From Actinomycetota bacterium (GTDB lineage Bacteria; Actinomycetota; UBA4738; HRBIN12), in the NCBI GenBank assembly GCA_035691205.1, contig DASSJM010000032.1, positions 15,698 through 79,697 of the forward strand: 64,000 bases of DNA, given 5' to 3'. The notes below the pieces were generated by a model. The model was not told the DNA's origin, did not search any database, and saw only the letters and a program-made list of their open reading frames with translations. Positions 2,109-38,283 of the stretch are shown here, one piece after another; the first letter of the stretch is position 1, and each line of letters starts with the position of its first letter. Both the position numbers and the translations under genes were made by a program.

Positions 2109-2120
2109 CGAGCGCCGAGC

Positions 2121-2860: not shown

Positions 2861-2961
2861 GTGAGCCGAGGCGTCCTTTGTACTCGAGCGGTGGCGAACG
2901 CGGAATCGGCCGTCAGGGTGGTTCGGACGCTCGGCCGGTCGGGCCGCCGTACGATACGCGG

Positions 2962-25190: not shown

Positions 25191-26009
25191 TTATGGATAC
25201 GGTACTCGGGGGTCCGGACGTTCTAGGTGATGCCCGATCTTCCGTGCAACGGTCAGGAACCCCGTGTGGGCGACCATGCGGTGATCGGGCCGGACGCTTC
25301 GGGCGGTCACGTGCCACGAGCGGTGGAGCACCTCGAAGGTCTCGAGGTGGTCGTAGCCCGTCTCCTCGAGCTCGAGGACGAACTGCTGCACCTGAACGGT
25401 CGTGGGCAGGTACCCGCAGACGATCCCCCCGTCCACCAGGATCCGGGAGACCGCCGGCAGCGCGGCCCAGGGTTCGGGGAGGTCCAGGATCGTCCGGTCG
25501 AAGGTCTCCCCGGTCTCCGCCGCCAGGGAGACGTCGCCCTCACGAAGCTCGAGCCAGTCCGGCAGCTTCCCGAAGAACGCCTCGATGTTGCGGGCGGCCT
25601 TCGACTGGAACTCCTGGCGCAGGTCGTAGGAAACGACCCGTCCGCCCGCCCCTGTGGCCCTGCAGAGAGCGAGGGTGAGGGACCCCGATCCGGTCCCTGC
25701 CTCCAGGACCCGGGCACCGGGGAAGACGTCCGCCTCCACCAGGATCGCCCCGATGTCCTTGGGGTACACGACCTGGGCGCCCCGGGGCATCTTCAAGATG
25801 TAGTCCGCCATCCGCGGGCGGAAGGCGCGGAACGCCATCCCCGTGGCCGAGTGGACCTGCGTCCCCTCGGGCGAGCCGATCACGAGGTCGTGCGGGAGCC
25901 CGCCCCCATGCGAGTGCCAGGTCTGCCCGGACTCCAGGGTCACGAAGTACCTGCGGCCGCGCTGATCGACGAGCAGGATCCGCTCCCCCGGCTCGAAGGG
26001 TCCGCTCAC
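25191..26009 (-). CDS. trmI: tRNA (adenine58-N1)-methyltransferase TrmI
   Basis: 272 aa. N-terminal beta-domain, then SAM-binding VLEAGTGSGSLTLAL and DLPEPW motifs. Orthologous position to Rv2118c next to arc. ATGA overlap with the upstream ttuBA stop. Confidence 0.85.
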   Translation of the reverse strand: MSGPFEPGERILLVDQRGRRYFVTLESGQTWHSHGGGLPHDLVIGSPEGTQVHSATGMAFRAFRPRMADYILKMPRGAQVVYPKDIGAILVEADVFPGARVLEAGTGSGSLTLALCRATGAGGRVVSYDLRQEFQSKAARNIEAFFGKLPDWLELREGDVSLAAETGETFDRTILDLPEPWAALPAVSRILVDGGIVCGYLPTTVQVQQFVLELEETGYDHLETFEVLHRSWHVTARSVRPDHRMVAHTGFLTVARKIGHHLERPDPRVPYP

Positions 26010-27223
26010 GACGGGCGCCCCGCCGTGTAGATCTCCGCCGGCAGGACCTCGTCCGAGGTCTCGGTGGCGATCTCACGCTCGTCGATCGCGTCCCGCTCGA
26101 TCCGCGGTTCCCCGAGGCGCTCGCCAAGGATCTGGGCCTGCGCCCGGCAGAAGGCGCAGAACCGGCCCGTCGTGGGCTGTTCGCACCGCTCGCACGGCAC
26201 GAGCGTCGCCTCGTCCTGCGAGGCGAACAGCGGTGCCGCCCGATCCAGGTACGAGAGGAAGAACTGGGCCTTGGTCCCGGGCGAGGTCGCCTCGAGCTGG
26301 TTCATCGCCTCCTTGTATCGGAGCTGGGTGTTCCCACCGACGAGCGGGCACTCCTCGACCACGTAGTCGATCCCGCGGAGGAACGCGTACGCGGCGGTCT
26401 CGAGCTCGGAGAGCCGATACAGCGGCTTCACCTTGCGGGCCAGTCCCTCCTCGGCGGGCAGGACCGGGAACTGTCGTGCGATGTAGTCCGTCTGCCAGCG
26501 GAGCGTGTTGCCGAGGAGCGTCGCCGCCTCGTCGTCCAGGTTATGGCCGGTGGCGACGACGTCGTACCCGTGGTCGCGTGCGGCCTTGTTGAAGATGTAG
26601 CGCTTGGACAGGCCGCACACGGCGCAGGTCGATCGGGATCCCTTCCGGCCGGCCGTCGGGACGTCGAACCCGTACTCGCGCTCGAGGTCGACCGCGATCA
26701 GGCGCGCCCCTCGCTCGCGCGCGAACGTCCGGGCGACCTCGCCGGAGCGGGTCGAGTACTCCCCGATCCCTAGGCCGAGGTACAGACCGTCGGCGCGGTA
26801 CCCGAGCTCGAGCAGCACGTCCCACAGGGCGAGCGAGTCCTTCCCCCCGGAGACGGCCACGAGGATCCGGTCCTCCGCGCCGAACATGTCGTAGTGCTCG
26901 ACGGCGCGCTTCACCTGCTCGCGTACGTGATGGACGAAGCAGTCGCGGCAGAAGGCCGCGTTGTGCCGCCGGACCTCGACCACGGCGGCCGCTCCGCACC
27001 GGCGGCACTTCATCCGATTGCCGCCGGTGCTCCCACCGCTGATCACGGGCCGGATCTCGATCAGGTCGTCGGCGCCCACACGGTCCTCCCGGGTGAGGAG
27101 CTCGCGCTCGCGGATCACGAGGACCGTGTCCGCGTTGATGCCGAGCTCGCGGAGGACGTCGTGCACCTTCCGGCCGCCAGGGACGTCCATCTCGCGATCG
27201 GGGTTGCGGAGCCGCACCTTCAT
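26006..27223 (-). CDS. ttuA: fusion of ThiS/TtuB-like sulfur-carrier domain (ends ...ISGG) with TtuA-type tRNA 2-thiouridine synthetase (PP-loop ATPase)
   Basis: 405 aa. Residues 1-64 MKVRLRNPDREMDVPGGRKVHDVLRELGINADTVLVIRERELLTREDRVGADDLIEIRPVISGG form a ThiS/MoaD beta-grasp ending Gly-Gly. Linker STGGNR. From the internal ATG at 27013: MKCRRCGAAAVVEVRRHNAAFCRDCF (Zn finger), VAVSGGKDS (PP-loop), CAVCGLSKRY, ATGHNLDDEA, C-terminal CERCEQPTTGRFCAFCR. Nearly collinear with Thermus TtuA. No stop between the two parts in this assembly. Confidence 0.75.
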   Translation of the reverse strand: MKVRLRNPDREMDVPGGRKVHDVLRELGINADTVLVIRERELLTREDRVGADDLIEIRPVISGGSTGGNRMKCRRCGAAAVVEVRRHNAAFCRDCFVHHVREQVKRAVEHYDMFGAEDRILVAVSGGKDSLALWDVLLELGYRADGLYLGLGIGEYSTRSGEVARTFARERGARLIAVDLEREYGFDVPTAGRKGSRSTCAVCGLSKRYIFNKAARDHGYDVVATGHNLDDEAATLLGNTLRWQTDYIARQFPVLPAEEGLARKVKPLYRLSELETAAYAFLRGIDYVVEECPLVGGNTQLRYKEAMNQLEATSPGTKAQFFLSYLDRAAPLFASQDEATLVPCERCEQPTTGRFCAFCRAQAQILGERLGEPRIERDAIDEREIATETSDEVLPAEIYTAGRPS

Positions 27224-27256
27224 GCAGGAGAGGCTACCCCCCGACCGGGCCGCGGG

Positions 27257-28339
27257 TCAGGTGGTCGCGACCGGGTTCACCCCGAGCTCGACCGTCAGCA
27301 CCTCCTGTGAGCCGTCGGGGTGCACCAACCCGACCTCGACCCGGTCCCCCGGCTCGTGATCCCGGATCAGCTCGCCGAGCTGCTCCGACCCCGTGACGGG
27401 CTCCCCGTCGAACACCACGATGACGTCTCCGACCTGCACGCCCGCCGTCTCCGCGGGGCCGTCGCTCACGAGGCCCACGATGAGCGCCCCCTCGCCCACC
27501 GGCGGATCGAACTGGAACTGCACCTGCGGGTCGGAGACATCGCCCGAGCTGATCCCCATGAACGCGACCGGGGCCGAGGGATCCGCAGCGGCGCCGAAGA
27601 TGATCTCCCGGGCCGAGTCGATCTGGATCGCGAACCCGATGTTCTCGGCGCTCCCGGCGCCCGCGGTGTTGATCCCGACGACCTCACCGGCCAGGTTCAC
27701 GAGCGGGCCGCCCGAGTTCCCCGGATTGATCGCGGCGTCCGTCTGGATCACCTCCGCGTACACGCGCCGCTGCTGATCGCACTCGAGGCAGTTCTCGTCG
27801 GGTACCACGATCCTGCGCGCGAGGGAGGAGACGATGCCGGTCGTGACCGACGGTCCCCCCTCCAGGCCGAGGGCGTACCCGATGGCCACCACCTGCTGCC
27901 CGAGCCGCAGGTCCTCCGAGCGCCCGAGCGGAACGGTCGGCAGGTCCGATGCCTCGACGTCGAGCACTGCGAGGTCGGCCTCGATGTCGCCCCCGATCAC
28001 CCGAGCGTCGTACCGCACCGGCTCCTCGTCGGAGGTGACGACGGTCACCTCACTCGCCCCCTCGACGACGTGGAAGTTCGTCACGATGATGCCGTCCGAG
28101 CGAACGATGAAGCCGGTTCCCTCGCCCTCCCCCTGATCGGAGAGGGCGACCACGTTGACCACGGCCGGAAGGACGCTCTCGACCACCTCGACCACCGCGT
28201 CGGGACCCGAGGCGAACGCGGCCTCGCTCGAGGGGAACTCCGCCCGGGGCTCGGCCGTATCGGTCTGGGTGGACCCGACCGTGCAGGCCGCGCCCGCGAG
28301 GCCGAGCACCACGATCAAGGGGATGAGGGTTCGTCGCAT
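27257..28339 (-). CDS. HtrA/DegP-family trypsin-like serine protease with PDZ domain (lipoprotein-type signal)
   Basis: The track ORF reaches 28393. The internal start at 28339 gives MRRTLIPLIVVLGLAGAAC (signal peptide with lipobox-like AAC). Catalytic triad context ...TNFHVV..., D, GNSGGPLVN. C-terminal PDZ (GALIVGLVSDGPAETAGVQVGDVIVVFDGE). Confidence 0.75.
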   Translation of the reverse strand: MRRTLIPLIVVLGLAGAACTVGSTQTDTAEPRAEFPSSEAAFASGPDAVVEVVESVLPAVVNVVALSDQGEGEGTGFIVRSDGIIVTNFHVVEGASEVTVVTSDEEPVRYDARVIGGDIEADLAVLDVEASDLPTVPLGRSEDLRLGQQVVAIGYALGLEGGPSVTTGIVSSLARRIVVPDENCLECDQQRRVYAEVIQTDAAINPGNSGGPLVNLAGEVVGINTAGAGSAENIGFAIQIDSAREIIFGAAADPSAPVAFMGISSGDVSDPQVQFQFDPPVGEGALIVGLVSDGPAETAGVQVGDVIVVFDGEPVTGSEQLGELIRDHEPGDRVEVGLVHPDGSQEVLTVELGVNPVATT

Positions 28340-28427
28340 GTCGGTATCTCCAGTCTGTCGGTCCAGCCGCCATTCGACACGGGCAGGTACCACGTTCGGG
28401 CCTGGGACTGAGAGTTGACTGAGAGTC

Positions 28428-29372
28428 TCAGTCGGAGGGCGGTGCGGGCGGGGCAGGGCGGGGCAGGAGGCCGCCCTCCTCCAGGACGGTGGGGATCGCC
28501 TCCTCGTTGTTGATCGTCATGAGGTGCACGCCTGCGACCCCGGGGATCTGCCGGACCAGGTCGAGGACCTCCAGCGCGACCTCGATGCCGGCTCGCCGCT
28601 GTTCCGGGGCCGATCCGGCCTCCATCCGCTCGAGGAGCGACTCCGGCACGTCGATGCCGGGGACGTGGTCGCGGAGGTACCGCGTGGCGAGGCCGGAGCG
28701 GGGGATGAACACGCCCGCGATCACCCACACGTGGTCGAGCAGGCCGAGCTCGCCGCAGCGAGCCATGAACAGACGCATCTTCTCGACGTTGAAGCAGATC
28801 TGGGTCTGGACGAACTCCGCCCCGGCCTCGATCTTCTTGCCCAGTCGCATCGGCCGGAACTCCAGCGGAGGCGCGAAGGGATTCTCGACGGCGCCGACGA
28901 GGAACGTGGGGGGTCGGGTGAGGGGGCGGCCCGACAGGTAGCAGCCCTCGTCGCGCATGATCCGAGCGATGCGCAGCAGGTGGAGCGAGTCGATGTCGAA
29001 GATCGGCTTGGCCTCCGGGTGATCGCCGGCGGTCACGTCGTCGCCGGTCATGCACAGGATGTTGGGGATGCCCAGGGCCCCCGCTCCGAGCAGATCCGCT
29101 TGCAAGGCAAGGCGGTTCCGGTCGCGGCAGGTTAGCTGCATCACCGGCTCCACGCCGGCATCGGCAAGGAGGTGCGCGGCGGCGAGGGCCGCGAGGTGTG
29201 GATGGGCCGCCGAGTTGTCCGTGCAGTTGACGGCGTCCACGCGTCCTCGCAGGTGCTGCGCCAACTCGGTCACCGAGGCCGGATCGGCCGAGTCGGTCGT
29301 CTCGAGCTCCGCGGTCACGACGAACTCGCCGGCGAGCAGGAGCCGGTGGAGCTCGCTTCGCGCCTCGGTCAT
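28428..29372 (-). CDS. metF: MetF-type 5,10-methylenetetrahydrofolate reductase catalytic subunit
   Basis: The C-terminal 314 aa of track ORF 28428..29678 start at ATG 29372 (MTEARSELHRLLLAGEFVVTAELETTDSADP...), a TIM-barrel MTHFR. ATGA overlap with metV stop. The upstream 102 codons of the track ORF are spurious. Confidence 0.75.
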   Translation of the reverse strand: MTEARSELHRLLLAGEFVVTAELETTDSADPASVTELAQHLRGRVDAVNCTDNSAAHPHLAALAAAHLLADAGVEPVMQLTCRDRNRLALQADLLGAGALGIPNILCMTGDDVTAGDHPEAKPIFDIDSLHLLRIARIMRDEGCYLSGRPLTRPPTFLVGAVENPFAPPLEFRPMRLGKKIEAGAEFVQTQICFNVEKMRLFMARCGELGLLDHVWVIAGVFIPRSGLATRYLRDHVPGIDVPESLLERMEAGSAPEQRRAGIEVALEVLDLVRQIPGVAGVHLMTINNEEAIPTVLEEGGLLPRPAPPAPPSD

Positions 29373-29797
29373 CCGTGCATCTTCCCCGATGCTGCCCAAC
29401 CCGAGGGCACGTGCCGGTCGCGACGGGTGAGCAGGTTCTCCCACGAGGACGTCTCCTGCAGGCGCCAGTCCGTCGGGCGCTGGACGTGTCCCATGTGGTC
29501 GCGCCAGGCGGGGAGCTTGCGGGATCCTTCCCACGCCTGGACCCACACGCACTTCATCTCCGGCTCGACCTCGCAGCTCCCGTCCTGCAGGACCCCCCCG
29601 CACGGGCCGTTGCGCAGGTTCTTTGGGCATCGCATCGGACAGGACAGCCCGGTGGAGTGCAGGATGCACTGACCGCACATCCGGCAGTCCCAGAAAGTCT
29701 CCTTCGTGGACCGCTCCACGAGCAGGAGCGCCCTTCGGAACCCTCCCGGGCTCGCGGCGGTGGGTTGGGGTCTGCGGTCGAGTCGGCTTCGCGGCAC
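29369..29797 (-). CDS. metV: MetV-like small zinc-finger subunit (MTHFR_C domain)
   Basis: 142 aa with Cys cluster FWDCRMCGQCILHSTGLSCPMRCPKNLRNGPCGG, characteristic of the MTHFR_C small partner encoded upstream of acetogen/actinobacterial MetF. Confidence 0.65.
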   Translation of the reverse strand: MPRSRLDRRPQPTAASPGGFRRALLLVERSTKETFWDCRMCGQCILHSTGLSCPMRCPKNLRNGPCGGVLQDGSCEVEPEMKCVWVQAWEGSRKLPAWRDHMGHVQRPTDWRLQETSSWENLLTRRDRHVPSGWAASGKMHG

Positions 29798-29820
29798 CGC
29801 GATGTCCCCCTAGCCTCCGG

Positions 29821-31002
29821 CTATCCCGCGCGCAGGTCGGCGGCGGGGATCTCCTTCCGCGGGTCGATGAACGGGATGGCAGCCGTGGCCACCTCGAGAG
29901 GTCCGTGCTCGGACTCGACCTGCAGGCGGTTGCCCGGCTCGGCGAGGTCGATCGGCACCCACGCGTAGCCGATGTTCCGTTCGAGCCTGGGCGACCATAT
30001 GGCGTCGGTCACGCGGCCCACCCGCTGCCCGTCCCGCATCACAGGCCAGAACCAGGACAGCTCCGCCGGCAGCTCGTCGCCCGACCACTCGATGCCGACG
30101 AGCTTGCGATCGACGCCACGCTCCTTCAGGGACAGCAGGGCCTTCTTGCCGATGTAGGCTTGCGGCTGGTCCTCGACGAGGTGCTCGAGCCCCATGACGT
30201 GCAGCGGGGTGTCCTCCAGGGTCATGTCCGAGCCCCAGTTCATGATGCCCGCCTCGATCCGCCTGGCCTCGACCGGCGCGACGGGGCGGATGCCGAACTC
30301 TTCGCCGGCCTCGAAGACCGCGTCCCACAGCTCCGTGCCGCGACCCGGATCCAGGAGGTTGATCTCGAAGCCCTGCACGGCGGTCCAGCCGGTCCGGCTG
30401 ATGAGCACGGGGATCCCGGCGATCTCGAACCAGTCACACCAGTAGTACTTGAGGTCGAGGATCCCGGGACCGGCCAGCTTCTCCACGGTCTTGGCCGCCT
30501 TCGCGCCCTGGATCTGCATCGGGTAGGCGTCGGGGTACGAGATCTCGACGTCCATGTTCGAGGCCGCGGCCACGCCGGTCGCGTACAGGCCCGCATCGGA
30601 GTCGGCCAGCTGCATCCACCAGCGGTTCTCGCCGACGTGGAGCAGGACGGGGTCGTTGACGATCCCACCGTCCGGCGCGGTGACGATCATGTACTTGCCC
30701 TGCTTCACCTGACACCTCGTGAGGTCGCGGCAGGTGAGCGAGTCGACGAACCGATCCGCGTCGTTCCCGCTGATCTGCACCGTGCGCTCCACGGCCACGT
30801 CCCAGACGGTGACGTCGTTCAGAAGCGCCCAGTATTCGGTCACCGGGTCGTCGAAGTAGGACGGCAGGAGCATATGGTTGTACACGTCGTAGGCGGTGCA
30901 ACCCGCCCGCCGCGACGCCTCGAAGTACGGCGACCGCCGGTACCAGGGGCCGAAGTAGATCGTGGCGCTCTGCTCGAGCATCCCCGGGCGCTCGTTCACC
31001 AT
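29821..31002 (-). CDS. GcvT-family aminomethyltransferase/THF-dependent demethylase paralog 1
   Basis: 393 aa. Folate-binding GcvT fold (…LLNDVTVWDVAVERTVQISGNDADRFVDSL…), C-terminal barrel (…GYAWVPIDLAEPGNRLQVE…). About 45% identical by eye to the neighbouring paralog. Confidence 0.8.
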   Translation of the reverse strand: MVNERPGMLEQSATIYFGPWYRRSPYFEASRRAGCTAYDVYNHMLLPSYFDDPVTEYWALLNDVTVWDVAVERTVQISGNDADRFVDSLTCRDLTRCQVKQGKYMIVTAPDGGIVNDPVLLHVGENRWWMQLADSDAGLYATGVAAASNMDVEISYPDAYPMQIQGAKAAKTVEKLAGPGILDLKYYWCDWFEIAGIPVLISRTGWTAVQGFEINLLDPGRGTELWDAVFEAGEEFGIRPVAPVEARRIEAGIMNWGSDMTLEDTPLHVMGLEHLVEDQPQAYIGKKALLSLKERGVDRKLVGIEWSGDELPAELSWFWPVMRDGQRVGRVTDAIWSPRLERNIGYAWVPIDLAEPGNRLQVESEHGPLEVATAAIPFIDPRKEIPAADLRAG

Positions 31003-31146
31003 GGTCGTCGCTCCTTCCGGGTCGCCTGTCGGGCGTTGGGCTGAATCATCGTTCAGTCAAGACCCTGAGCGCAACCGCCATCCGCCGCGACCGTCCCTGG
31101 CTCACCTTGAACCGTCGGACAGGAAGCACCCCGGCCCCACGTGGAC

Positions 31147-32286
31147 CTACGAGACGGGGATCTGCTTCCCCGGGTCCACGAAGGGCATCTCGACCACCGT
31201 GCCGCCCCGCGTGCCCCACTCGCTCTCGATCGTCACGCGCGTGCCGAGGGTGGACCGCTCCGCCGGGAGCCACGCGAAGCCGATGTTCGCGTTCAGTCGG
31301 GGCGAGTAGATCGCGGACGTCACCTTGCCGATGCGCTCACCGGCCTCGGTCACGGGCCACTTCACGTTGTTGAGCTCCGGGAAGGGATCCCCATCGATCT
31401 CGAGGCCGTTGATCCTCCGGTCCACGCCCCGGTCGCGGATCGCCCGCAGCGCCCGCAGGGAGATGCTGGCGTCGTCGGGGAGGTCCCACGCGACGAGGCG
31501 CTCCAGGCCCAGCTCCAGCGGGTTGTTCTCGTAGGTCATGTCGGCGCCCCAATTGAAGATCCCGCCCTCGATGCGGCGGATGTCGCTCGGGCCGGTCGGC
31601 CTGACGTTGAACTCCTGCCCGGCCTCCATCAACGCCTCGTAGACCTCGGTGCCCCGGCTCGTGTCGGTCAGGTAGACCTCGTAGCCCACCTCGGAGGTCC
31701 AGCCGGTGCGGGTGACGATCACCGGTGCACCCGCGATCTTCGCCTCGGTCCAGAAGTAGTACTTCAGATCCAGGATCTGGTCCCCGAGGAGCTTGGCCAT
31801 CAGCTGCTTTGACTTCGGCCCCTGCACCTGGAGCGGCGCGACGTCGGCCTCCTGGATCGTCACGTCCAGGTCCGGGTAGGCGTTCTTCAGCCCCCGCGCG
31901 AACAGGAGCGCGTCCGAGGACGCGAGCGCGAACCAGAACGTGTTCTCGTCCATCCGCGTGAGCACGGGGTCGTTGATGATCCCGCCATCGCTGTCGCAGA
32001 TGAGCACGTACTTGCCCTGCCCGACCGCGCAACGGGACAGGTCACGGGGGGTGAGGAGCTGCGCGAAGCGGAACCCGTCGGGACCCGAGATCTCCAGGCA
32101 GCGCTCCACCGAGACGTCCCAGATCGTGACGTCGTTCAGGAGGGACTCGAACTCCGCCTCGAAGGTGTCGAAGCGGATCGGGAAGTACATGTGGTTGTAG
32201 ACGGTGAAGCCCTTGGGCTCGTGCTTCTGGGTGGCCTCGTAGTAGGGCGTGCGGCGGTTGCGCGCCCCTCGCTGTACCTGGCTCAT
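31147..32286 (-). CDS. GcvT-family aminomethyltransferase/THF-dependent demethylase paralog 2
   Basis: The C-terminal 379 aa of track ORF 31147..32550 from ATG 32286 (MSQVQRGARNRRTPYYEATQKHEPKGFTVYNHMYFP...). Same architecture as paralog 1. The upstream 88 codons overlap the amidohydrolase gene and are spurious. Confidence 0.8.
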   Translation of the reverse strand: MSQVQRGARNRRTPYYEATQKHEPKGFTVYNHMYFPIRFDTFEAEFESLLNDVTIWDVSVERCLEISGPDGFRFAQLLTPRDLSRCAVGQGKYVLICDSDGGIINDPVLTRMDENTFWFALASSDALLFARGLKNAYPDLDVTIQEADVAPLQVQGPKSKQLMAKLLGDQILDLKYYFWTEAKIAGAPVIVTRTGWTSEVGYEVYLTDTSRGTEVYEALMEAGQEFNVRPTGPSDIRRIEGGIFNWGADMTYENNPLELGLERLVAWDLPDDASISLRALRAIRDRGVDRRINGLEIDGDPFPELNNVKWPVTEAGERIGKVTSAIYSPRLNANIGFAWLPAERSTLGTRVTIESEWGTRGGTVVEMPFVDPGKQIPVS

Positions 32287-32401
32287 GTCGAACGCCACGA
32301 TCCCCTCCTCGCTGATCCGAGCGATGGCCCGGCGGTCCCGCGGGCCGGGCGTATCGTCCGACCGCCCCGGGTGGGCGGCAAGGATGGACTCTGACCGCAG
32401 G

Positions 32402-34102
32402 TCAGACGCCGGCCTCGTACACCGGCTCTCCCTCGACGTAGGTCGCCTGCACGGTCGCCTCGTGGATGGCCTCGGGCGCCAGGGTGAAGAGGTTGCGGTC
32501 GAGCACCGCCAGGTCGGCCAGCTTGCCCACCTCGATCGAGCCGGTGACATCGTCGAGATGGTTCACGTACGCCGCGTTGATCGTGAATCCGGCGATCGCC
32601 GCGGGCAGGTCGATCCGCTCGTCCGGCAGGAACACCTCCTCGCTCTGGCCACCGTAGGCATACGTGGCCGGCGCCTGTCGGTTCACGGCCACGTGCATCT
32701 GCTCGATCGGGTCCGGGCTCGAAACGGACCAGTCGCTGCCCATCGCGAGGACGGCTCCCGTGCGCGCGAGGCTGCCGAACGGGTACTGCCAGGTGGAACG
32801 TTCGGGGCCGAGGAACGGGATCGTGAGGTGAAGCATCTGCCCCTCGTTGACCGCCCAGAGCGGCTGGGCGTTCGCGACGACGTCGAGGCCGCGGAAGCGA
32901 GGCACGTCCTCCGGATGGATCACCTGGATGTGTGCGATGTGGTGGCGGAGGTCGTTCGGGCCGTTGACCCCGCGAGCGGCCTCGACGGCGTCCAGCGCCT
33001 CTCGGACCGCGCGTTCGCCGATCGCGTGGAAGTGGACCTGGAACCCCTCGGCGTCCAGGCGGGTCACGACCGCCTTCAGCTCCTCCGGATCGACGAACGA
33101 TCTCCCTCGGTTGTCGGTCGGAGCGCCGTTCGCGTCGAGGTAGGGCTCGAGGACCCCCGCGGTCTGGTTCTCGATGACGCCGTCCTGCATGATCTTCACG
33201 CTCGTCGCCACGAAGCGACCCACCGGTGTGCGCGTCCGTGCTGCGATGAGGTCCTCGACCTGTTCGATCCCACGGTGTCGGTCCCACCACAGCGCCGCGA
33301 TCACGCGTGCGGTGAGCTCGCCCGCCCCGGCGAACGTGACGTACGCATCGAAGGTGCGGTATCCGGAGTCCAGGCCGACGATCGCGTCCTGCCACGCGGT
33401 GATGCCGAGGGAGTGCAGATACGCCTGCGCGATGCGGAGGGACGCGATCCAGTCCTCCATCGTCTCGTCGGGGACGTGCTCGTTAACCAGTGCAGAGGCA
33501 CCCTCGTGCAGCGTCCCGGTCGGCTCGCCGTCCGCATCGCGCACGATCCAGCCGTCGGAGGGATCCGGCGTGTCCCGCGTCACGCCGGCGACCTCCAGTG
33601 CCTTCGAGTTCACCCACGCGCTGTGTCCGTCCCGGCTGGGCAGGTACACGGGGCGGTCCGGGACGATCCGGTCGAGCACGTCCTTCGTGGGATTGCCGCC
33701 CGGGAAGAGGTCCATCGACCATCCACCGCCCACCACCCACTCGTCGTCGGGGTGGGACGTCACGAACCCGGCGATGATGCGCTCGTACTCCTCGACGGAG
33801 TAGGCGTCGGATAGGTTGCAGTGCAGCATGTCGAAGCCCCCGCCCGGGGGGTGGCAATGTGCGTCCTGGAAGCCGGGCACCAGCATGCGGCCCTGCAGGT
33901 CCACGACCTCGGTTCCCGTCGCGGCGAGCGAGCGGACCTGCTCATCGGTCCCCACCGCGGCGATGCGGCCGTCCTTCACCGCGACCGCCTGCGCCCATCG
34001 TCTCGCGGCGTCGACCGTGTACACGGCCCCGTTCACGAACACGAGGTCGGCCGAACCCTTGTCGCTCACGGGCACCCTCCGGTCATCGAGCGGCCGAAGC
34101 AT
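32402..34102 (-). CDS. amidohydrolase-3-family metal-dependent hydrolase
   Basis: 566 aa. LVFVNGAVYTVD...LQGRMLVPGFQDAHCHP (HxH metal site), ...AIGERAVREALDAVE, HHIAHIQ, C-terminal AMGSDWSVSSPDP. Paralogous to 597..2108. Confidence 0.8.
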   Translation of the reverse strand: MLRPLDDRRVPVSDKGSADLVFVNGAVYTVDAARRWAQAVAVKDGRIAAVGTDEQVRSLAATGTEVVDLQGRMLVPGFQDAHCHPPGGGFDMLHCNLSDAYSVEEYERIIAGFVTSHPDDEWVVGGGWSMDLFPGGNPTKDVLDRIVPDRPVYLPSRDGHSAWVNSKALEVAGVTRDTPDPSDGWIVRDADGEPTGTLHEGASALVNEHVPDETMEDWIASLRIAQAYLHSLGITAWQDAIVGLDSGYRTFDAYVTFAGAGELTARVIAALWWDRHRGIEQVEDLIAARTRTPVGRFVATSVKIMQDGVIENQTAGVLEPYLDANGAPTDNRGRSFVDPEELKAVVTRLDAEGFQVHFHAIGERAVREALDAVEAARGVNGPNDLRHHIAHIQVIHPEDVPRFRGLDVVANAQPLWAVNEGQMLHLTIPFLGPERSTWQYPFGSLARTGAVLAMGSDWSVSSPDPIEQMHVAVNRQAPATYAYGGQSEEVFLPDERIDLPAAIAGFTINAAYVNHLDDVTGSIEVGKLADLAVLDRNLFTLAPEAIHEATVQATYVEGEPVYEAGV

Positions 34103-34149
34103 ACCGGTGCGGGATATGCTCGCGCCCCAACGCGTTCCGGGAGGCTGGT

Positions 34150-35640
34150 GTGCGGAGGATCCGGTCCGTCGTAGCGGTGACGCTCGCCCTCGCGACCCTG
34201 CCGGGCGGCCTGGCGGCGGCCTCCGGGCAGACCGCCGACCCGGTCACGGTGCGGGTGATGACCTTCAACATCTGGTACGGGGCCACCCCGACCCATGGGC
34301 TCGACGAGGTCGTGGACGCGATCGAGCTCGCCGACGCCGACGTGATCGGGATGCAGGAGCCCTACGCCCGCCTGCGCCGGATCGCCTCGGCGCTCGGCTT
34401 CTACGTTTCCCCTCGGATGCACGTCATCTCCCGCTACCCGATCCTCGAGCCCGCCGGTACGGACGGCGGCTGGGCGTACCTGCTGCTCGGCCCGGGCCGG
34501 GTGGCGGCGATCGCGAACACGCACCTCCCCTGCTGCCCGTACACGCCCTATCGGATCGTGCACAAGGGGTTCACGCGCCGGGAGGCCCTCGAGCAGGAGG
34601 CGAACACGCGGGTCCGCAAGATCGAGCGGCAGCTCGCCCCCCTGGGGCCGCTGATCGACGCCTCGGTCCCCACGTTCTTCACCGGCGACTTCAACACGCC
34701 GTCGCATCGGGACTGGACGCCCGCGGCCGTGGAGGCCCGCGGGTTGCCCTATCCGATCCGGTGGCCGGTGTCCCTCGCGATGGAGGAGGCGGGGTTCGTC
34801 GACTCCTACCGCGCGGTGCATCCGGACCCGGTCGCCGATCCCGGGTTCACGTGGACGCCGGGGTATCCGGCTCCGTTCGTGTACGACTGGGACGTCCACG
34901 ATCGGATCGACTTCGTCTGGGCGGCCGGTCCCGCGATGCCGATGGACAGCCGTGTCGTCGGCGAGTCCCGGACGAACGCCGACCTCGTGATCGCTCCGTA
35001 CCCCACCGATCACCGCGGCGTGGTGTCGACGTTCGAGGTCACGCCCGCGTCGCCACCCGTCTTCGTCGCGGCCGATCGGGAGCGTTCGAGGCCCGGCCGG
35101 GCCCTGGACGTCTGGTTCCATTCGGCCGGGGGCGCCGACGAGCACGTGAGGCTCGTGGAGGCGGCGAGCGGCACCGTCGTCGCCGAGGTCCCGACCGGCC
35201 CGGAGCCGACGGTCGATGGAACGGTCGCCTTCGACACCACCGGCCTCGTGCAGGGCCCCTACGACCTGCTCCTGCTGGACGGGAGCGGCGCCGAGCTGGC
35301 GCGCGATCACGTCGTCCTGGTGGCCCACGATCAAGATCCGATCCTCACCCTGGCCGACGGAACGCTCGAGGGCGCACAACGCCTCGAGGTCGCCTGGACC
35401 TTCGCGCCGGGCAACCGCTACGACTGGCTCGGCGTCTTCCGCGCCGGTCGGACGGCCAAGACGGGCTCGATCAAGGCGTGGCGCTACCTCGAGGCTCAGG
35501 TCGACGGCTCGACGACGATCGGGCCCGGCGCCCGAGGTGCCGCAGGATGGCCGCTGCCCCCGGGCGACTACGAGCTGCATCTGTGCCTGGACGACTCCTA
35601 TCGATGTCGGGTGTCGGCGCCGTTCACCGTCCTGGGCTGA
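34150..35640 (+). CDS. secreted endonuclease/exonuclease/phosphatase (EEP)-family protein
   Basis: The track ORF starts at 33859, but GTG 34150 (GGGAGG 5 nt upstream) gives VRRIRSVVAVTLALATLPGGLAAASG (signal peptide). EEP motifs VMTFNIWYG...IGMQE...TGDFN...DHR. C-terminal half is a beta-rich domain. Confidence 0.7.
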   Translation: MRRIRSVVAVTLALATLPGGLAAASGQTADPVTVRVMTFNIWYGATPTHGLDEVVDAIELADADVIGMQEPYARLRRIASALGFYVSPRMHVISRYPILEPAGTDGGWAYLLLGPGRVAAIANTHLPCCPYTPYRIVHKGFTRREALEQEANTRVRKIERQLAPLGPLIDASVPTFFTGDFNTPSHRDWTPAAVEARGLPYPIRWPVSLAMEEAGFVDSYRAVHPDPVADPGFTWTPGYPAPFVYDWDVHDRIDFVWAAGPAMPMDSRVVGESRTNADLVIAPYPTDHRGVVSTFEVTPASPPVFVAADRERSRPGRALDVWFHSAGGADEHVRLVEAASGTVVAEVPTGPEPTVDGTVAFDTTGLVQGPYDLLLLDGSGAELARDHVVLVAHDQDPILTLADGTLEGAQRLEVAWTFAPGNRYDWLGVFRAGRTAKTGSIKAWRYLEAQVDGSTTIGPGARGAAGWPLPPGDYELHLCLDDSYRCRVSAPFTVLG

Positions 35641-35646
35641 GCGGGC

Positions 35647-37245
35647 TCACGCGAGCGCGACCAGCTCCAGCAGCTCGTCGTCCCACCACGTGAGCTCGCC
35701 CTCGGGCATCATCAGGACCCGCCGAGGTGCGAGGGCCTCCACGAACCCCACGTCGTGGCTCACGAGCACCATCGAGCCCGACCAGGTCGACAGGGCCTCG
35801 GCCACCGCGGTGCGCGAGGGCGGGTCGAGGTTGTTGGTGGGCTCGTCCAACAGGATCAGGTTGCGCCGACCCGCCACGAGCTGTGCGAGCGCGAGCTTGG
35901 TCTTCTCCCCGCCCGAGAGCGTCCCGGCCTCCTGGAACGCGACGTCGCCCGTGAGGCCGAACATCCCGAGCAGGCCCCGCAGCTCCTGGTCGGAGGCGTC
36001 GGTGGACTCGGCCCGCACGTGGGCCAGGACCGAGTCCTCGTCGCGGAGCAGCTCGTGCTCCTGCGCGTAGTACCCGAGGGAGACGCCGTGGCCCAGGCGG
36101 AGCGAGCCCGCGTCGGCATCCGTCACCCCGGCGAGGATGCGAAGCAGGCTCGTCTTGCCGGCCCCGTTCAGGCCCATGATGAGCAGCCGCTCGCCCCGCT
36201 CCACCGCGAAGCCGACATCCCGGAACACGGCAGGGCCCCCGTAGCCCTTCGCGAGCCCATCCGCCTGGAGCACGACCTTCCCGGCGTGCGGCGGTTCGGG
36301 GAACCGGTAGCGGACCCGGCGCTCGCGTGCGGGTCCGTGCACGGCCGTCGACTCGAGGCGGGCGGCCCGAGAGTCCAGGGTCTTGGCCTTGCGGGCCCTC
36401 TTGGCCGTCTGGCCCCGCATCGAGTCGGCGAGCGTCTTCAGGCGCCGGATCTCGGTCTGCTGGCGTTCGGCCATGGCCCGGAGGCGGGCCTCGTCCTGCC
36501 GTCTGGCCTCCCGGTACTCGGAGTAGGTGCCCCGGTACTGGACGACCCCCTCCCGGTCCAGATGCAGGATCCTGGTGATCGATGCGTCGAGCAGCGCGAG
36601 ATCGTGGCTGACGACGACGAGCGCGCCTCGGTACGACGCGAGGAAGCGCATCAGCCAGTGTTTGGCGTCGCTGTCCAGGTGGTTCGTGGGCTCGTCGAGC
36701 AACAGGACGTCGGAGCCGGCGAAGAGGATCCGCGTGAGCTCGAGCCGGCGCCGCTCCCCACCCGAGAGCGCGGGGACCGGCAGGTCCAGGCGGTCCTGTG
36801 CCAGGCCGAGGCCGACGGCGATCCGCTGCGCCTCGGCCTCGCCCGAGTAGCCGCCGGCGGCCCGGTACCGCTCCTCGAGGCGGGCGAACCGGCGGACGTT
36901 GGCGTCGGAGGCGCGCTCCTCGACGGCGAGGCGGGCCTTCTCCGTCCTCTCCGCCAGCTCGAGGAGGCCTCGTGCCTGCAGCACGTGCACGAGGCCGGTG
37001 TGCTCGTCCTGCGCGCGGTGCTGGCGGGGATCCTGCCGCAGGTAGCCGAGCCGGCCCTGCACCACGACCCGCCCCGCGACGGGCTGCTCCTCCCCCGCGA
37101 GGACCTTCAGCAGGCTCGTCTTGCCCGCGCCGTTGCGGCCCACGACACCGACTTTGTCGCCGGCGCGCAGGGAGAGCGTCAGGCCCTCCAACAGCGGCCG
37201 GCCGGCCGCCTCGACCGCGAGGTCGCGGATCTGGAGCGCGCTCAT
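35647..37245 (-). CDS. ABC-F family ATPase (tandem ABC domains, no TMD)
   Basis: 532 aa. Two Walker A (GRNGAGKTSLL, GLNGAGKTSLL), two LSGGE signatures, two Walker B (LLLDEPTNHLD, LILLDEPTNNLD), and an inter-domain linker. Confidence 0.85.
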   Translation of the reverse strand: MSALQIRDLAVEAAGRPLLEGLTLSLRAGDKVGVVGRNGAGKTSLLKVLAGEEQPVAGRVVVQGRLGYLRQDPRQHRAQDEHTGLVHVLQARGLLELAERTEKARLAVEERASDANVRRFARLEERYRAAGGYSGEAEAQRIAVGLGLAQDRLDLPVPALSGGERRRLELTRILFAGSDVLLLDEPTNHLDSDAKHWLMRFLASYRGALVVVSHDLALLDASITRILHLDREGVVQYRGTYSEYREARRQDEARLRAMAERQQTEIRRLKTLADSMRGQTAKRARKAKTLDSRAARLESTAVHGPARERRVRYRFPEPPHAGKVVLQADGLAKGYGGPAVFRDVGFAVERGERLLIMGLNGAGKTSLLRILAGVTDADAGSLRLGHGVSLGYYAQEHELLRDEDSVLAHVRAESTDASDQELRGLLGMFGLTGDVAFQEAGTLSGGEKTKLALAQLVAGRRNLILLDEPTNNLDPPSRTAVAEALSTWSGSMVLVSHDVGFVEALAPRRVLMMPEGELTWWDDELLELVALA

Positions 37246-37411
37246 GACGCCGGGTCCTTCGTGAACTGTCTACGGTGCATCGGGCGGTCTCCTGGGCGGT
37301 GGGCGTGAGCTGCTGGGCGCCGGGCGGCGCCGCACTGACCGGGGAGGTCGTCCTAGCTCACGGCCTGGAGTGTAGCGCCCCGCGAACGCTCGGGGAACGT
37401 CCGGCGACAGG

Positions 37412-38116
37412 ATGGCCCCGCCCATCCCCGCCCGTAGCATGGGAGCCGTGGAGCGGACGCAGGCCTTCGTGTTCGACCTGGACGGCACCCTGGTGGACAG
37501 CGTCTACCAGCACGTGCTCGCGTGGCAGCACGCCCTTGACGCCGCGGGGATCGAGCTCTCGGTCTGGAGGATCCACCGCAAGGTCGGCATGAGCGGCGGG
37601 CTCTTCGCGAACGCCCTCCTCCGCGAGACCGGTCGCGAGGTGACGTCGGAGCAGGCCGCGGAGCTCCGGCGCCTGCACGCCGAGGCCTACGCGGCCCTCG
37701 GGCCGAGGGTCCGACCGCTGCCCGGCGCCCGGGAGCTCCTCCGACACCTGAGCGCCTCGGGAACCCCGTGGGCGATCGCGACGAGCGGTTACCGCGAGTC
37801 CGCCGGTCCTACGATCGAGCTGCTCGGTGTCCCCCCCGACGTCCCCGTGGTCACGCGCGACCTCGTCGAGCGCGCGAAGCCCGACCCCGACCTGTTCCTC
37901 GCTGCGGCCGAGCGACTCGGGATCGACATCGAGGACTGCGTCGTAGTCGGCGACAGCGTGTGGGACCTGCTCGCCGCCCGCCGGGCTCGTGCGCTCGGCG
38001 TCGGCATGCTCTCGGGTGGGTACGGGCGCGAGGAACTCGAGCGGGCAGGTGCGTACCGCGTGTACGAGGACCCGGCGGACCTGCTGGACCACCTCGACGA
38101 GGTGGGCGTCCGCTAG
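37412..38116 (+). CDS. HAD-superfamily hydrolase (beta-phosphoglucomutase/phosphatase-like)
   Basis: 234 aa. Motif I FVFDLDGTLVDS, motif II ATSG, motif III/IV ...VVGDSVWD. An alternative start at 37439 (MGAVERTQAF...) is equally plausible. Confidence 0.75.
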   Translation: MAPPIPARSMGAVERTQAFVFDLDGTLVDSVYQHVLAWQHALDAAGIELSVWRIHRKVGMSGGLFANALLRETGREVTSEQAAELRRLHAEAYAALGPRVRPLPGARELLRHLSASGTPWAIATSGYRESAGPTIELLGVPPDVPVVTRDLVERAKPDPDLFLAAAERLGIDIEDCVVVGDSVWDLLAARRARALGVGMLSGGYGREELERAGAYRVYEDPADLLDHLDEVGVR

Positions 38117-38283
38117 GGATCCGGGACCGTCCCTGCGATCCGTCGCCCGACCGGACGGTGATTAGCCGCCGATGGGATGGGGTACACGGAAGGCGTTGGC
38201 CAACCCGACAGGGATCCCACGCACCGGCGATCGCTGGATAGCCCGCGAAGGCGACGGGAAGCACGTCGCCGGGAAGGAGGCGC

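Follow-up and report, generated by a model that had tools for sequence, protein, structure and literature searches.

A conserved soil actinobacterial locus with two DmdA-like paralogs and a MetV–MetF pair, and its possible part in THF-dependent demethylation

Gene content and conservation of the locus

In this study, we analysed a 64-kb stretch of DNA (the window) from an uncultured, high-GC soil actinobacterium, in which five genes lie on the minus strand at positions 28428–34102. The first encodes a YtcJ-like metal hydrolase of the Amidohydro_3 family (32402–34102; 566 aa), which matches PF07969 over its full length with 336 bits. It is followed by two genes for DmdA-like proteins with the THF-binding aminomethyltransferase (GcvT) fold, here called paralog 1 (31147–32298) and paralog 2 (29821–31002; 393 aa), both of which contain PF01571 and PF08669. 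The last two genes encode the small Cys-rich MTHFR subunit MetV (29369–29797; about 142 aa, with an uncertain start codon; PF12225/DUF5981, 91 bits) and MetF, the catalytic subunit of a MetVF-type methylene-THF reductase (28428–29372; 314 aa; PF02219, 111 bits). These five reading frames were favoured over many overlapping spurious ORFs because of their third-position GC content of 86–93%. Paralog 1 could start at a GTG at 32298 (383 aa) or at an ATG at 32286 (379 aa); its homologs are 383 aa long and a GGAGG sequence is located 8–10 nt ahead of the GTG. The intergenic gaps are 103 nt between the amidohydrolase and paralog 1, 144 nt between the paralogs and 23 nt between paralog 2 and metV, while the metV stop and metF start codons overlap in an ATGA. 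The five co-oriented genes and this overlap had been described in an earlier, sequence-only reading of the DNA, and all of them were found again here. No transporter, folD or purU gene tied to these genes is present in the window.

The same earlier reading took the genes for a catabolic island. What we found instead is a block of the syntenic core, present in hundreds of MAG species of soil Actinomycetota. Among the 80 species-level genome loci examined, 62 have the downstream side covered, and in 57 of these the block lies between an ABC-F gene and the Pup-proteasome genes. Paralog 1 is 80–88% identical across the relatives, compared with 78–93% for the proteasomal ATPase, and in the more divergent relatives its identity of 80–84% exceeds that of all neighbouring proteins, the proteasomal ATPase included. 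This would be unusual for a peripheral catabolic enzyme and counts against such a role. The two MetVF genes lie beside the paralogs in two different gene orders, GcvT1–GcvT2–MetV–MetF and, in the locus L037, GcvT1–MetV–MetF–GcvT2-like; however, in 28 of 57 relatives the cluster lacks them, and therefore MetVF could be a housekeeping MTHFR that has been placed here in one sub-lineage only.

The amidohydrolase had also been assigned to the module, and its gene is indeed found upstream of paralog 1 in 57 of 61 relatives. However, it is its own transcription unit and is not independently tied to the other genes, since its closest cultured homologs, which are from Streptomyces and 54–57% identical, are encoded within TetR–amidohydrolase–Opp-type ABC operons that lack an aminomethyltransferase gene, and since paralog 1 occurs in other contexts without it. 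Its best PDB relatives are the uncharacterised metal hydrolases 3igh and 3icj. It is probably a separate syntenic neighbour, and its membership in the module is doubtful.

Family placement of the paralogs and of MetV–MetF

The two paralogs are 49% identical to each other. In the phylogeny both fall into a DmdA-like superclade that was separated from GcvT and Tdm in 100 of 100 bootstraps, with the Tdm branch at the base of the superclade that includes the DmdA-like proteins. DmdA is also the best-scoring curated NCBIfam model for both proteins (340 bits for paralog 1 and 309 bits for paralog 2, against a cutoff of 410), far above GcvT, Tdm, LigM and DesA, and Tdm is the second-best model. The GcvT model gave 155–180 bits for paralog 1, and both paralogs score below its cutoff. 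In addition, no GcvH or GcvP homologs were detected in the 64-kb window by tblastn with the E. coli proteins as queries. An identity as GcvT was therefore rejected on the basis of the bootstrap split, the sub-cutoff scores and the lack of gcvH and gcvP nearby, which bears out the earlier view that the genes do not serve glycine cleavage. As judged from these comparisons, the paralogs belong, among the THF-dependent enzymes, to the DmdA-like branch, where they form a sister clade of the verified DmdAs; a phylogeny of the pair had been suggested as a check on the demethylase reading, and this is where it places them.

That the paralogs are true DMSP demethylases of soil actinobacteria seems to us improbable, although DmdA is both their best curated model and their best PDB relative (P. 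ubique DmdA, 3tfh; full-length matches with E values of 2.5e-71 for paralog 1 and 5.9e-65 for paralog 2), and although two verified DmdAs are themselves only 44% identical to each other. Furthermore, Roseobacter plasmid homologs of the clade (50% identical) are accompanied by dmdB- and dmdD-like genes, in a dmd-like setting that includes genes for an enoyl-CoA hydratase and an acyl-CoA synthetase. However, the paralogs score below the equivalog cutoff, lie outside the verified DmdA clade in 99 of 100 bootstraps, and are 33–36% identical to verified DmdAs versus 49–54% to non-DmdA relatives. No dmdB, dmdC or dmdD gene was found in the window or in 84 actinobacterial loci, and the host lineage is terrestrial. 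Paralog 1, paralog 2 and P. ubique DmdA have the motifs YNHM(L/Y)(L/F)P, G-G-I-(I/V)-N-D-P and T-G-W-(T/S) in common. Since a verified roseobacter-type DmdA has a Y at the position of the W proposed as a DMSP contact, we regard these motifs as marks of the family and not of function. Even more remote is the idea that the paralogs are LigM/DesA-type aromatic O-demethylases acting on methoxylated lignin monomers; the sequence-only reading had named methoxy-aromatics among the possible substrates. The soil hosts, the common fold and the ligM–metF precedent (PMC11868366) would agree with it; however, the scores of 43–62 bits with the LigM and DesA models are below the respective cutoffs (580 and 800), the alignments cover the N-terminal half alone, the paralogs are about 80 residues shorter than LigM and DesA, and no aromatic ring-cleavage genes are located nearby.

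MetV contains eight Cys residues (positions 38, 41, 44, 53, 57, 66, 75 and 83), which by analogy with the acetogen MetV (PMC8760232) would fit two [4Fe-4S] clusters. Among the NCBIfam models, MetF scores best with that for the MTHFR half of YitJ (194 bits), and its similarity to canonical MTHFR structures is only distant (E about 1e-9). The closest cultured MetV–MetF pairs are located within corrinoid quaternary-amine demethylation clusters: MetF is 46–48% identical to the MetF proteins of such pairs in Paracoccus, Sinorhizobium and Azoarcus, and MetV is 59% identical to that of Azoarcus KH32C. These clusters encode an MttB-family methyltransferase, a corrinoid protein, MetV, MetF, a methyl-THF:cobalamin methyltransferase and a RamA-like protein, and lie beside genes for betaine transporters, purU or carnitine dehydrogenase.

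The sequence-only reading had also linked demethylase-type paralogs with an MTHFR, and this link is supported by independent contexts, as in each of three unrelated lineages a relative of the paralog clade adjoins an MTHFR gene. The DmdA-like protein SAR11_1265, which has been suggested to supply methyl-THF for oxidation, is encoded next to metF (SAR11_1264; Sun et al., 2011; PMC3160333), and the expression of the two genes changes together. On a Lichenihabitans plasmid, metF is divergent from an AMT–purU–folD gene set, and no similarity between this metF and the MetF of the window could be detected. The pairing of DmdA-like and MTHFR genes thus recurs with MTHFR genes of unrelated sequence type. 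In addition, demethylases that make methyl-THF have been described in clusters with a dedicated MTHFR, as in ligM–metF, cmu–metF and dmt–metF (PMC11868366).

Palindromes and promoter-like elements

The gap between the paralogs contains a 16-bp palindrome, CTGAACGATGATTCAG, at 31041–31056 (family consensus TTGAAC-GATG-ATTCAA), a predicted operator. It is the sole match to YTGAA-N6-TTCAR in the 64 kb, where 0.01 would be expected by chance, and the motif is found 44–103 nt upstream of paralog 2 in 71 of 71 relatives, which strengthens the earlier suggestion that it may be a regulator site. Its outer bases covary across the arms, being C...G here and T...A in most relatives. The palindrome overlaps a putative −10 element, GATGAT (31045–31050), which lies 18 nt after TTGCGC (31069–31074). 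All occurrences of the motif within 1.43 Mb of loci are located either ahead of paralog-2-type genes, behind paralog 1 or ahead of a Rieske oxygenase gene. This GbcA-like oxygenase gene is located directly upstream of paralog 1 in 14 of 61 relatives, where it carries the 16-bp type of palindrome.

Paralog 1 is preceded by a different palindrome, CTGACC-N3-GGTCAG (32391–32405), which overlaps the amidohydrolase stop codon and is present within 220 nt upstream, with up to two mismatches, in 77 of 80 relatives. It is kept even where the upstream gene encodes a Rieske oxygenase or a methyltransferase and not the amidohydrolase, and it may be an operator or a terminator hairpin. Between this palindrome and the gene we read a promoter-like element on the minus strand, TTGCCG–17 nt–GACGAT (32353–32381). 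A strict sigma-70 consensus scan returned no match for it; the consensus of 84 paralog-1 upstream regions retains TTGcC ... ACGATa, and we infer that it could be the promoter of paralog 1.

A possible THF-dependent demethylation pathway

Based on these comparisons, we propose that the locus may serve to transfer methyl groups from an onium compound of the betaine or sulfonium type to THF, with subsequent oxidation of the resulting methyl-THF by MetVF, a proposal to which we give an even chance of being correct; the THF-dependent demethylation reading put forward earlier is thus supported in part. According to this model, each paralog would be a methyltransferase that moves a single methyl from an activated onium donor to N5 of THF, giving 5-methyl-THF. 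Candidate donors are quaternary ammonium compounds, among them glycine betaine and related betaines, and sulfonium compounds, of which DMSP and S-methylmethionine would be examples. Hints as to the substrate come from the GbcA-like Rieske oxygenase gene that precedes paralog 1 in some relatives, from the Gemmatimonadota and Acidobacteriota operons discussed below and from the dmd-like surroundings of the Roseobacter plasmid homologs. MetF, together with its iron–sulfur partner MetV, would then oxidize 5-methyl-THF to 5,10-methylene-THF, with electrons passing through the MetV clusters to a further acceptor, and the C1 unit would be assimilated or oxidized; alternatively, methyl-THF might enter methionine synthesis directly. 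Paralog 2, metV and metF form one transcription unit, and because the 16-bp palindrome overlaps its promoter, a dimeric repressor probably holds this unit off until the substrate is present, while paralog 1 would have its own promoter and palindrome.

To our knowledge, the characterised enzymes of this fold other than DmdA (GcvT, DMGO, SoxA and Tdm) all form methylene-THF and not methyl-THF. DmdA, the single characterised member of the branch, transfers the methyl group in a redox-neutral reaction that yields 5-methyl-THF (PMC5395565). The paralogs might work like the THF-binding domains in Tdm, DMGO or DmmD and trap the formaldehyde or iminium released by oxygenase- or oxidase-dependent N-demethylation of a methylated amine as methylene-THF, which MetVF would reduce to 5-methyl-THF for methionine synthesis. 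We consider this rather unlikely, though it has several points in its favour: the Rieske oxygenase gene, which recurs upstream of paralog 1 in an unrelated ileS context; the Gemmatimonadota and Acidobacteriota, in which an operon encoding two FAD oxidoreductases and a Tdm-like T protein ends with a 54–57% identical homolog; the Tdm model score and basal Tdm branch; and the usually reductive direction of MetVF enzymes ('type 3', graded 'likely reductive' in PMC11868366). The Rieske and FAD-oxidoreductase associations would fit formaldehyde or iminium capture equally well. However, the Tdm-like protein of the Gemmatimonadota operon (IDDG and GYTG motifs) already makes the DmdA-like protein an extra component there, the 'amine oxidases' of these operons are CrtI/CrtO-like, and the window contains no oxygenase or oxidase partner. 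In the contexts examined, moreover, DmdA-like genes and the MetVF subtype occur with metF, purU and folD or with methyl-THF-forming corrinoid systems. Clusters for methylene-THF-making enzymes (sox, dmg, tdm) are generally not known to contain a metF.

Less probable still is a housekeeping function, in which MetVF would be the general MTHFR of the methionine pathway, the paralogs would fulfil a constitutive core task in folate metabolism and the genes would be only loosely clustered by their C1 chemistry. The position beside the Pup-proteasome genes, which most species-level genomes examined have in common, and the ATPase-like conservation of paralog 1 speak for it, as does the fact that the half of the relatives without MetVF in the cluster must encode an MTHFR elsewhere; in addition, no second MTHFR was seen within the 64-kb window. 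On the other hand, the dedicated and highly conserved predicted operator over the promoter points to inducible control, MetVF stays beside the paralogs in the rearranged order of L037, the paralogs are below the GcvT thresholds with no gcvH or gcvP in the window, and the cultured MetVF pairs nearest in sequence are catabolic.

The proposed methyl transfer and oxidation can be compared with several known systems. DmdA (P. ubique SAR11_0246, PDB 3TFH; R. pomeroyi SPO1913) has the same three-domain GcvT-like THF-binding fold, with full-length alignments at E values of 1e-65 to 1e-71 and the YNHM, NDP and, for the SAR11 enzyme, GW motifs; it differs in belonging to the sister clade, whereas here two tandem paralogs are found in a terrestrial actinobacterial host without dmdBCD. 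SAR11_1265/SAR11_1264 is likewise an uncharacterised DmdA-like enzyme next to an MTHFR gene, but in another phylum and habitat, as a single gene instead of a pair, and with an MTHFR that by annotation appears to be a single-subunit MetF and not a MetV–MetF pair. The logic is also that of LigM–MetF–LigH of Sphingobium SYK-6 and other 'type 4' MTHFR pairs, in which a THF-dependent demethylase makes 5-methyl-THF and the clustered MTHFR oxidizes it (Yu et al., 2025; PMC11868366), whereas the MTHFR of the window is a two-subunit iron–sulfur MetVF and its demethylase candidates are DmdA-like, not LigM-like. Methyl-H4F oxidation from quaternary amines has been proposed for the MtgBCD–MetF2 system, by which aerobic Proteobacteria demethylate glycine betaine, and for the MttB/corrinoid/MetV–MetF systems; in Ruegeria pomeroyi, MetF2 (SPO1862), paralogous and likened here by its described role, is encoded next to mtgD and is the most induced protein on glycine betaine, choline and carnitine (PMC12478193). 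There the methyl group passes through an MttB-family methyltransferase, a corrinoid protein and a methyl-THF:cobalamin methyltransferase, none of which is encoded in the module of the window, and if our proposal is correct, the DmdA-like pair would perform the methyl transfer without cobalamin. Finally, the acetogen MetVF (type II MTHFR; Clostridium ljungdahlii; PMC8760232) also consists of MetF and an adjacent eight-Cys MetV, for which two [4Fe-4S] clusters are predicted, and likewise lacks an NAD(P)H-binding module. Unlike the acetogen enzyme, the pair described here has no Wood–Ljungdahl context and comes from a high-GC soil actinobacterium, and its MetV is shorter, at about 14–16 kDa versus 23–26 kDa.

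Five genes on the minus strand and their two DmdA-like paralogs

The window has a G+C content of 70%, and the real frames were picked from among many overlapping ORFs by third-codon-position GC. Five genes lie on the minus strand in 34102-28428, namely an Amidohydro_3 hydrolase (566 aa), two paralogs with GCV_T and GCV_T_C domains (paralog 1 at 32298..31147, 383/379 aa, and paralog 2 at 31002..29821, 393 aa), MetV, a small DUF5981 protein of about 142 aa, and MetF, a PF02219 MTHFR of 314 aa. Gaps of 103 nt, 144 nt and 23 nt precede paralog 1, paralog 2 and metV, respectively, and the metV stop overlaps the metF start in an ATGA. No homologs of GcvH, GcvP, FolD, PurU or a canonical MetF were found within the 64-kb window, and tblastn at E <= 1e-3 gave no match to gcvH or gcvP in the window or in any locus fetched from related genomes. 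The sequence-only reading, which had described five genes in one orientation with an ATGA overlap and without gcvH or gcvP in the window, was therefore correct in all details of gene content. The remaining genes of the window have core functions (an FtsH-like protease, CysS, a helicase, TatAC, an Opp-type transporter, glycolysis genes and UvrA).

The paralogs are 49% identical to each other, and for both the best among the NCBI curated models is that of DmdA (NF009133, NCBIfam), with scores of 340.2 bits (paralog 1) and 308.9 bits (paralog 2) against an equivalog cutoff of 410. The respective scores were 185 and 159 bits with the Tdm model (cutoff 1100), 154.9 and 124.3 bits with the GcvT model TIGR00528 (cutoff 235.85) and 180.3 and 153.6 bits with the GcvT model NF001567 (cutoff 300), and the LigM and DesA models gave 42.7-62.3 bits against cutoffs of 580 and 800, with the alignment confined to the N-terminal ~200 residues. 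The nearest solved structure is that of P. ubique DmdA (3TFH), which both proteins match from end to end (E 2.5e-71 for paralog 1 and 5.9e-65 for paralog 2), a homology that settles their fold. A neighbour-joining tree was built from 50%-identity representatives, PDB references and annotated plasmid genes with 100 bootstraps. In 100/100 bootstraps the true GcvTs and the C-terminal domain of Tdm fell outside the DmdA-like superclade, and the clade of verified or dmdBCD-linked DmdAs, which comprises P. ubique DmdA, Phaeobacter DSM 17395 DmdA and the Marivivens dmdABCD protein, left out the window paralogs in 99/100. The paralogs are 33-36% identical to the P. ubique and Phaeobacter DmdAs, which are 44% identical to one another, 39-41% identical to the dmdBCD-linked Marivivens protein, 44-54% identical to relatives outside the DmdA clade (from Gemmatimonadota, roseobacter plasmids and a Lichenihabitans plasmid) and 24-25% identical to E. 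coli GcvT.

Taken together, the model scores, the tree and the identities, along with the GCV_T and GCV_T_C domains and the full-length 3tfh homology, indicate that both paralogs are members of the DmdA-like branch, apart from GcvT and Tdm. An identity as DmdA itself is made improbable by the scores, by the position outside the verified clade and by gene context, as no link to dmdB, dmdC or dmdD was seen in the window or related loci. GcvT is rejected by scores below both cutoffs and by the lack of gcvH and gcvP nearby, and the option of a LigM/DesA-type aromatic O-demethylase, which had also been raised, has to be dropped given its low, partial matches. The phylogeny that had been proposed as a check thus sets the paralogs outside both GcvT and verified DmdA. 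Both paralogs share the motifs YNHM(L/Y)(L/F)P, GGI(I/V)NDP and TGW(T/S) with SAR11 DmdA, and T proteins have FGGWxxP, IDDL and TGYTG at the corresponding positions; these are family marks and no proof of function. W171 has been cited as a DMSP contact in DmdA (PMC7487153), yet it is not diagnostic of such a contact, because a verified roseobacter-type DmdA has Y at that position. Distinctive of this locus is an uncharacterised, very conserved sister clade of DmdA, present as a tandem duplicate.

Conserved gene order and candidate operators

When one genome per species was scanned, 389 relatives emerged; almost all of the best 80 are MAGs from soil that carry the label Actinomycetota or Actinomycetes. 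Metagenomes, too, are rich in paralog-1 homologs of 80-92% identity (7,976 of 8,000 scored candidates had E <= 1e-20), which NCBI labels no more closely than as Actinomycetota MAG proteins. In the best 80 loci the conserved order is ABC-F, amidohydrolase, paralog 1, paralog 2, (MetV, MetF) and an HtrA-like protease, followed by a TtuA-like protein, TrmI, the proteasomal ATPase, Dop, Pup and the proteasome. The cluster is thus a syntenic core block next to the Pup-proteasome genes and among genes of core function, and not the catabolic island that had been suggested. Paralog 2 adjoins paralog 1 in 57 of the 62 loci covered downstream, and is followed by MetV-MetF in 29 of these 57 and directly by the protease gene in the other 28; in one rearranged locus (L037) the order is paralog 1, MetV, MetF and a paralog-2-like gene. 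Among all relatives paralog 1 is 80-88% and the proteasomal ATPase 78-93% identical. In the more divergent half, no protein of the neighbourhood is as conserved as paralog 1, which has 81-84% identity; the proteasomal ATPase reaches 78-80% and the protease 50-55%. The TtuA-like PP-loop ATPase of the window (26006-27223, minus strand; TtuA_LIM_N, ATP_bind_3), which lies beside the Pup-proteasome genes, has an N-terminal stretch of ~65 extra residues ending ...RPVISGG that is without a Pfam match and looks like a fused ubiquitin-fold sulfur carrier of the ThiS/TtuB type.

The amidohydrolase matches PF07969 with 336 bits over profile positions 1-472 of 472 and carries the N-terminal H-x-H metal motif as FQDAHCHP. 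Its position is conserved, upstream of paralog 1 in 57 of the 61 loci covered on that side. The gene ends before the proposed paralog-1 promoter and is absent where paralog 1 lies in other contexts, and its closest cultured homologs, from Streptomyces (54-57% identical), are found in TetR-amidohydrolase-Opp-type ABC operons. The amidohydrolase had been counted as part of the module; on this evidence we treat it as a probable neighbour and not as a component. A second Amidohydro_3 paralog in the window (597-2120, minus strand) is 27% identical to it, and directly upstream of that gene lies an RVT_1 reverse-transcriptase fragment of ~260 aa (2121-2912, minus strand), which may be a remnant of a group II intron or retron. 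Divergent from the amidohydrolase is a secreted-looking gene of the endonuclease/exonuclease/phosphatase family (33859-35640, plus strand). As annotated, its ORF reaches into the 5' end of the amidohydrolase, and the true start probably lies further downstream. Few relatives have this gene (L013, L024, L026, L032, L050 and L069), which makes it a variable insertion in an otherwise syntenic block.

In 14 of the 61 loci a Rieske oxygenase gene is inserted directly upstream of paralog 1; the best model for its product is GbcA (glycine betaine monooxygenase), at 187 bits far under the cutoff of 670. Paralog 1 also occurs in a second context, with ileS, lspA and divIVA as neighbours, where it is preceded by a Rieske oxygenase and/or SAM-methyltransferase gene and a paralog-2-like gene lies nearby. 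In three such loci (L015 6600-9829, L038 7785-9836 and L060 9055-9849) the gene before paralog 1 encodes a SAM-dependent methyltransferase (Methyltransf_11, ~260 aa), and L015 also has an unannotated 344-aa protein.

The intergenic region before paralog 2 contains CTGAACGATGATTCAG (31041-31056), the sole match in the window to YTGAA-N6-TTCAR (0.01 expected). This palindrome had been singled out as a possible regulator site. All of 71 relatives (71/71) have a copy, differing at no more than one position, at a distance of 44-103 nt before paralog 2. Its family consensus TTGAACGATGATTCAA is the one strongly conserved block in the aligned paralog-2 intergenic regions, and its outermost bases covary on both arms, with C...G in the window and T...A in most relatives. 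The palindrome is real and looks functional. A TTGCGG-like hexamer precedes the operator, which places GATGAT at -10 spacing. Many relatives have a second copy right after the paralog-1 stop codon and a third before the Rieske gene, and in the ileS context the motif is again found ahead of the paralog-2-like gene; beyond these sites, the fetched loci, 1.43 Mb in all, contain no further copy.

Before paralog 1, 77 of 80 relatives have a palindrome of another type, CTGACC-N3-GGTCAG (32391-32405 in the window), with TTGCC-N17-GACGAT after it, and keep it whichever gene lies upstream. The locus would thus comprise two separately controlled transcription units, one of paralog 1 alone and one of paralog 2, metV and metF. 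Consensus promoter and terminator scans gave no match in 28000-34600, and both promoters are proposed solely from conservation; an Rfam search of 26000-38500 at a permissive E-value gave no riboswitch or known RNA. An inverted repeat with 13-nt arms, 85% complementary and 12 nt apart (28401-28438), straddles the metF stop ahead of the HtrA-like gene and may be a terminator or attenuator between the two.

No regulator gene for the operator was found nearby, and the available leads, betI-like and LexA-like, are weak. The betI box published for R. pomeroyi, ATTGACG*CGTCAAT (PMC12442346), has the TTGA/TCAA arms in common with the operator, whose spacer is 4 bp longer. In relatives, the operator copy before the Rieske gene (TTGAACGGCCGTTCAA) agrees at 13 of 16 positions with a palindrome that lies between betI and betT in E. 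coli, and there is no BetI-like gene in the window or the fetched loci. The operator also resembles Gram-positive LexA boxes; GAAC-N4-GTTC does not occur in the window, including upstream of uvrA. The ARG-box, Zur, cre and Cra consensuses were considered, and none fits both arms and the spacing.

The MetV-MetF pair and a model for methyl transfer

MetF has remote similarity (E >= 7e-10) to canonical or single-subunit MTHFR structures, and among curated models it matches the MTHFR half of YitJ best. A PF02219 MetF adjoined by a small Cys-rich subunit with the MTHFR C-terminal domain (PF12225) is the arrangement that defines the MetVF type (type II of Oppinger et al.; type 3 of Yu et al.), to which the pair is assigned from sequence. 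Two [4Fe-4S] clusters are described for acetogen MetV, and MetVF enzymes are without an NAD(P)H site (PMC8760232); the eight cysteines of the window MetV would match two such clusters. The closest cultured pairs are those of Paracoccus methylovorus, P. aminovorans, Sinorhizobium meliloti and Azoarcus sp. KH32C, with 46-48% identity for MetF and 59% for MetV (Azoarcus). In the three clusters inspected (P. methylovorus, S. meliloti and Azoarcus), MetV and MetF occur with DUF1638, a methyl-THF:cobalamin methyltransferase (annotated in Azoarcus as dihydropteroate synthase) and a RamA-like activase; an MttB-family methyltransferase and a corrinoid protein are present in P. methylovorus and S. meliloti, and Azoarcus shows the corrinoid protein only. 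Next to these clusters are genes of betaine ABC transporters, purU or a carnitine dehydrogenase gene. In the related system of Ruegeria pomeroyi, MetF2 (SPO1862), which may be of the same subtype as the window MetF, is encoded next to mtgD. No other protein was as strongly induced as MetF2 on glycine betaine, choline and carnitine, and it has been proposed to oxidise methyl-H4F (PMC12478193).

MTHFR genes of apparently unrelated sequence are found beside a DmdA-like gene in three lineages. SAR11_1265 adjoins the metF SAR11_1264 (PMC3160333), and the two are co-regulated; on a Lichenihabitans plasmid metF, purU and folD surround the DmdA-like gene, and this MetF is dissimilar to that of the window; and in the lineage of the window MetVF is kept beside the paralogs through the rearrangement seen in L037. 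To our knowledge, DmdA is the sole characterised member of the DmdA-like branch, activation of a methyl group for transfer to THF is confined to onium compounds, and clusters of methylene-THF-forming enzymes are generally without metF. DmdA makes 5-methyl-THF by redox-neutral methyl transfer (PMC5395565), and it is well established that demethylases forming methyl-THF can be paired with an MTHFR of their own (ligM-metF, cmu-metF, dmt-metF; PMC11868366). We favour a model in which the paralogs would transfer a methyl group to THF and MetVF would then oxidise the methyl-THF. This chemistry points to onium compounds as the probable substrate class, as do the GbcA-like neighbour, the genes around the MetVF homologs and the clusters of dmd type on roseobacter plasmids. 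The THF-dependent demethylation proposed in the sequence-only reading survives to this extent, in that the paralogs are DmdA-like and MetV-MetF is adjacent, but without the island, the LigM/DesA relationship or the amidohydrolase.

The paralogs could instead trap formaldehyde or an iminium as methylene-THF, which would fit the Rieske oxygenase and FAD oxidoreductase neighbours of some relatives. The latter belong to an operon conserved in MAGs labelled Gemmatimonadota or Acidobacteriota (L085 1849-9167, L086 3498-9143 and L087 3488-9200), which encodes a Tdm-like T protein, two FAD oxidoreductases, (DUF5128) and, as the last gene, a DmdA-like protein 54-57% identical to paralog 1. However, the two Amino_oxidase genes are CrtO/CrtI-like by NCBIfam, so that a reading as amine oxidases was rejected and a sequential N-demethylation by this operon becomes weaker; moreover, the Tdm-like protein bears the T-protein motifs, and its presence suggests that the role of the DmdA-like protein differs from C1 capture. 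MetVF, which is missing from the cluster in 28 of 57 relatives, could itself be a housekeeping MTHFR; its retention beside the paralogs in the rearranged locus stands on the other side.

We infer the function of the whole module throughout. A THF-dependent demethylase with an MTHFR is an arrangement of a known kind, and what seems distinctive here is the DmdA sister clade, the MetVF type and the dedicated operator. Major osmolytes and methyl reservoirs include the betaines and sulfonium compounds, and where their methyl carbon goes is decided by the enzymes of the first demethylation. The known routes for this step are BHMT, the corrinoid MtgB systems and the Rieske GbcAB and, for DMSP, DmdA; the MetVF type is otherwise known from acetogens and corrinoid betaine demethylation. 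It is conceivable, if on balance doubtful, that the DmdA-like clade is a cobalamin- and O2-independent quaternary-amine:THF methyltransferase, with glycine betaine as an example of a substrate, wired in soil Actinomycetota to an oxidatively running iron-sulfur MetVF. It would then be a fourth, so far undescribed route for the first demethylation of betaines, next to BHMT, MtgB/corrinoid and GbcAB. If the proposed methyl transfer and oxidation hold, soils would gain a cobalamin-free demethylation route, and MetVF would be seen to work physiologically as a methyl-THF oxidase outside anaerobes. Among uncultured soil Actinomycetota the sister clade is extremely conserved and common, with matches in 389 species-level genomes and thousands of proteins from metagenomes; in half of the genomes examined it is linked to a MetVF-type MTHFR. 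It is a good lead to a possibly cobalamin-free betaine/sulfonium demethylation in abundant uncultured soil bacteria, and the conserved operator offers a handle for the regulator, the inducer and hence the substrate.

Related genes in other lineages

The DmdA-like clade found here extends to Gemmatimonadota and Acidobacteriota, and related DmdA-like genes are present on roseobacter and Lichenihabitans plasmids. A cluster on Phaeobacter and Loktanella plasmids (L089 8320-13060, L091 8325-13124 and L092 7321-12052) encodes an Lrp regulator, a DmdA-like protein, OsmC, an enoyl-CoA hydratase and an acyl-CoA synthetase; its DmdA-like protein is 50% identical to paralog 1 and is not a verified DmdA, and the cluster resembles a dmd pathway built on an enzyme from outside the DmdA clade. 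A Gemmatimonadota MAG, Candidatus Kutchimonas denitrificans (JAACAK010000010.1; L066 10001-11137), has a paralog-1 homolog 80% identical to the actinobacterial one, which lies among TPR proteins without paralog 2, MetVF or the operator and points to horizontal transfer or a binning error.
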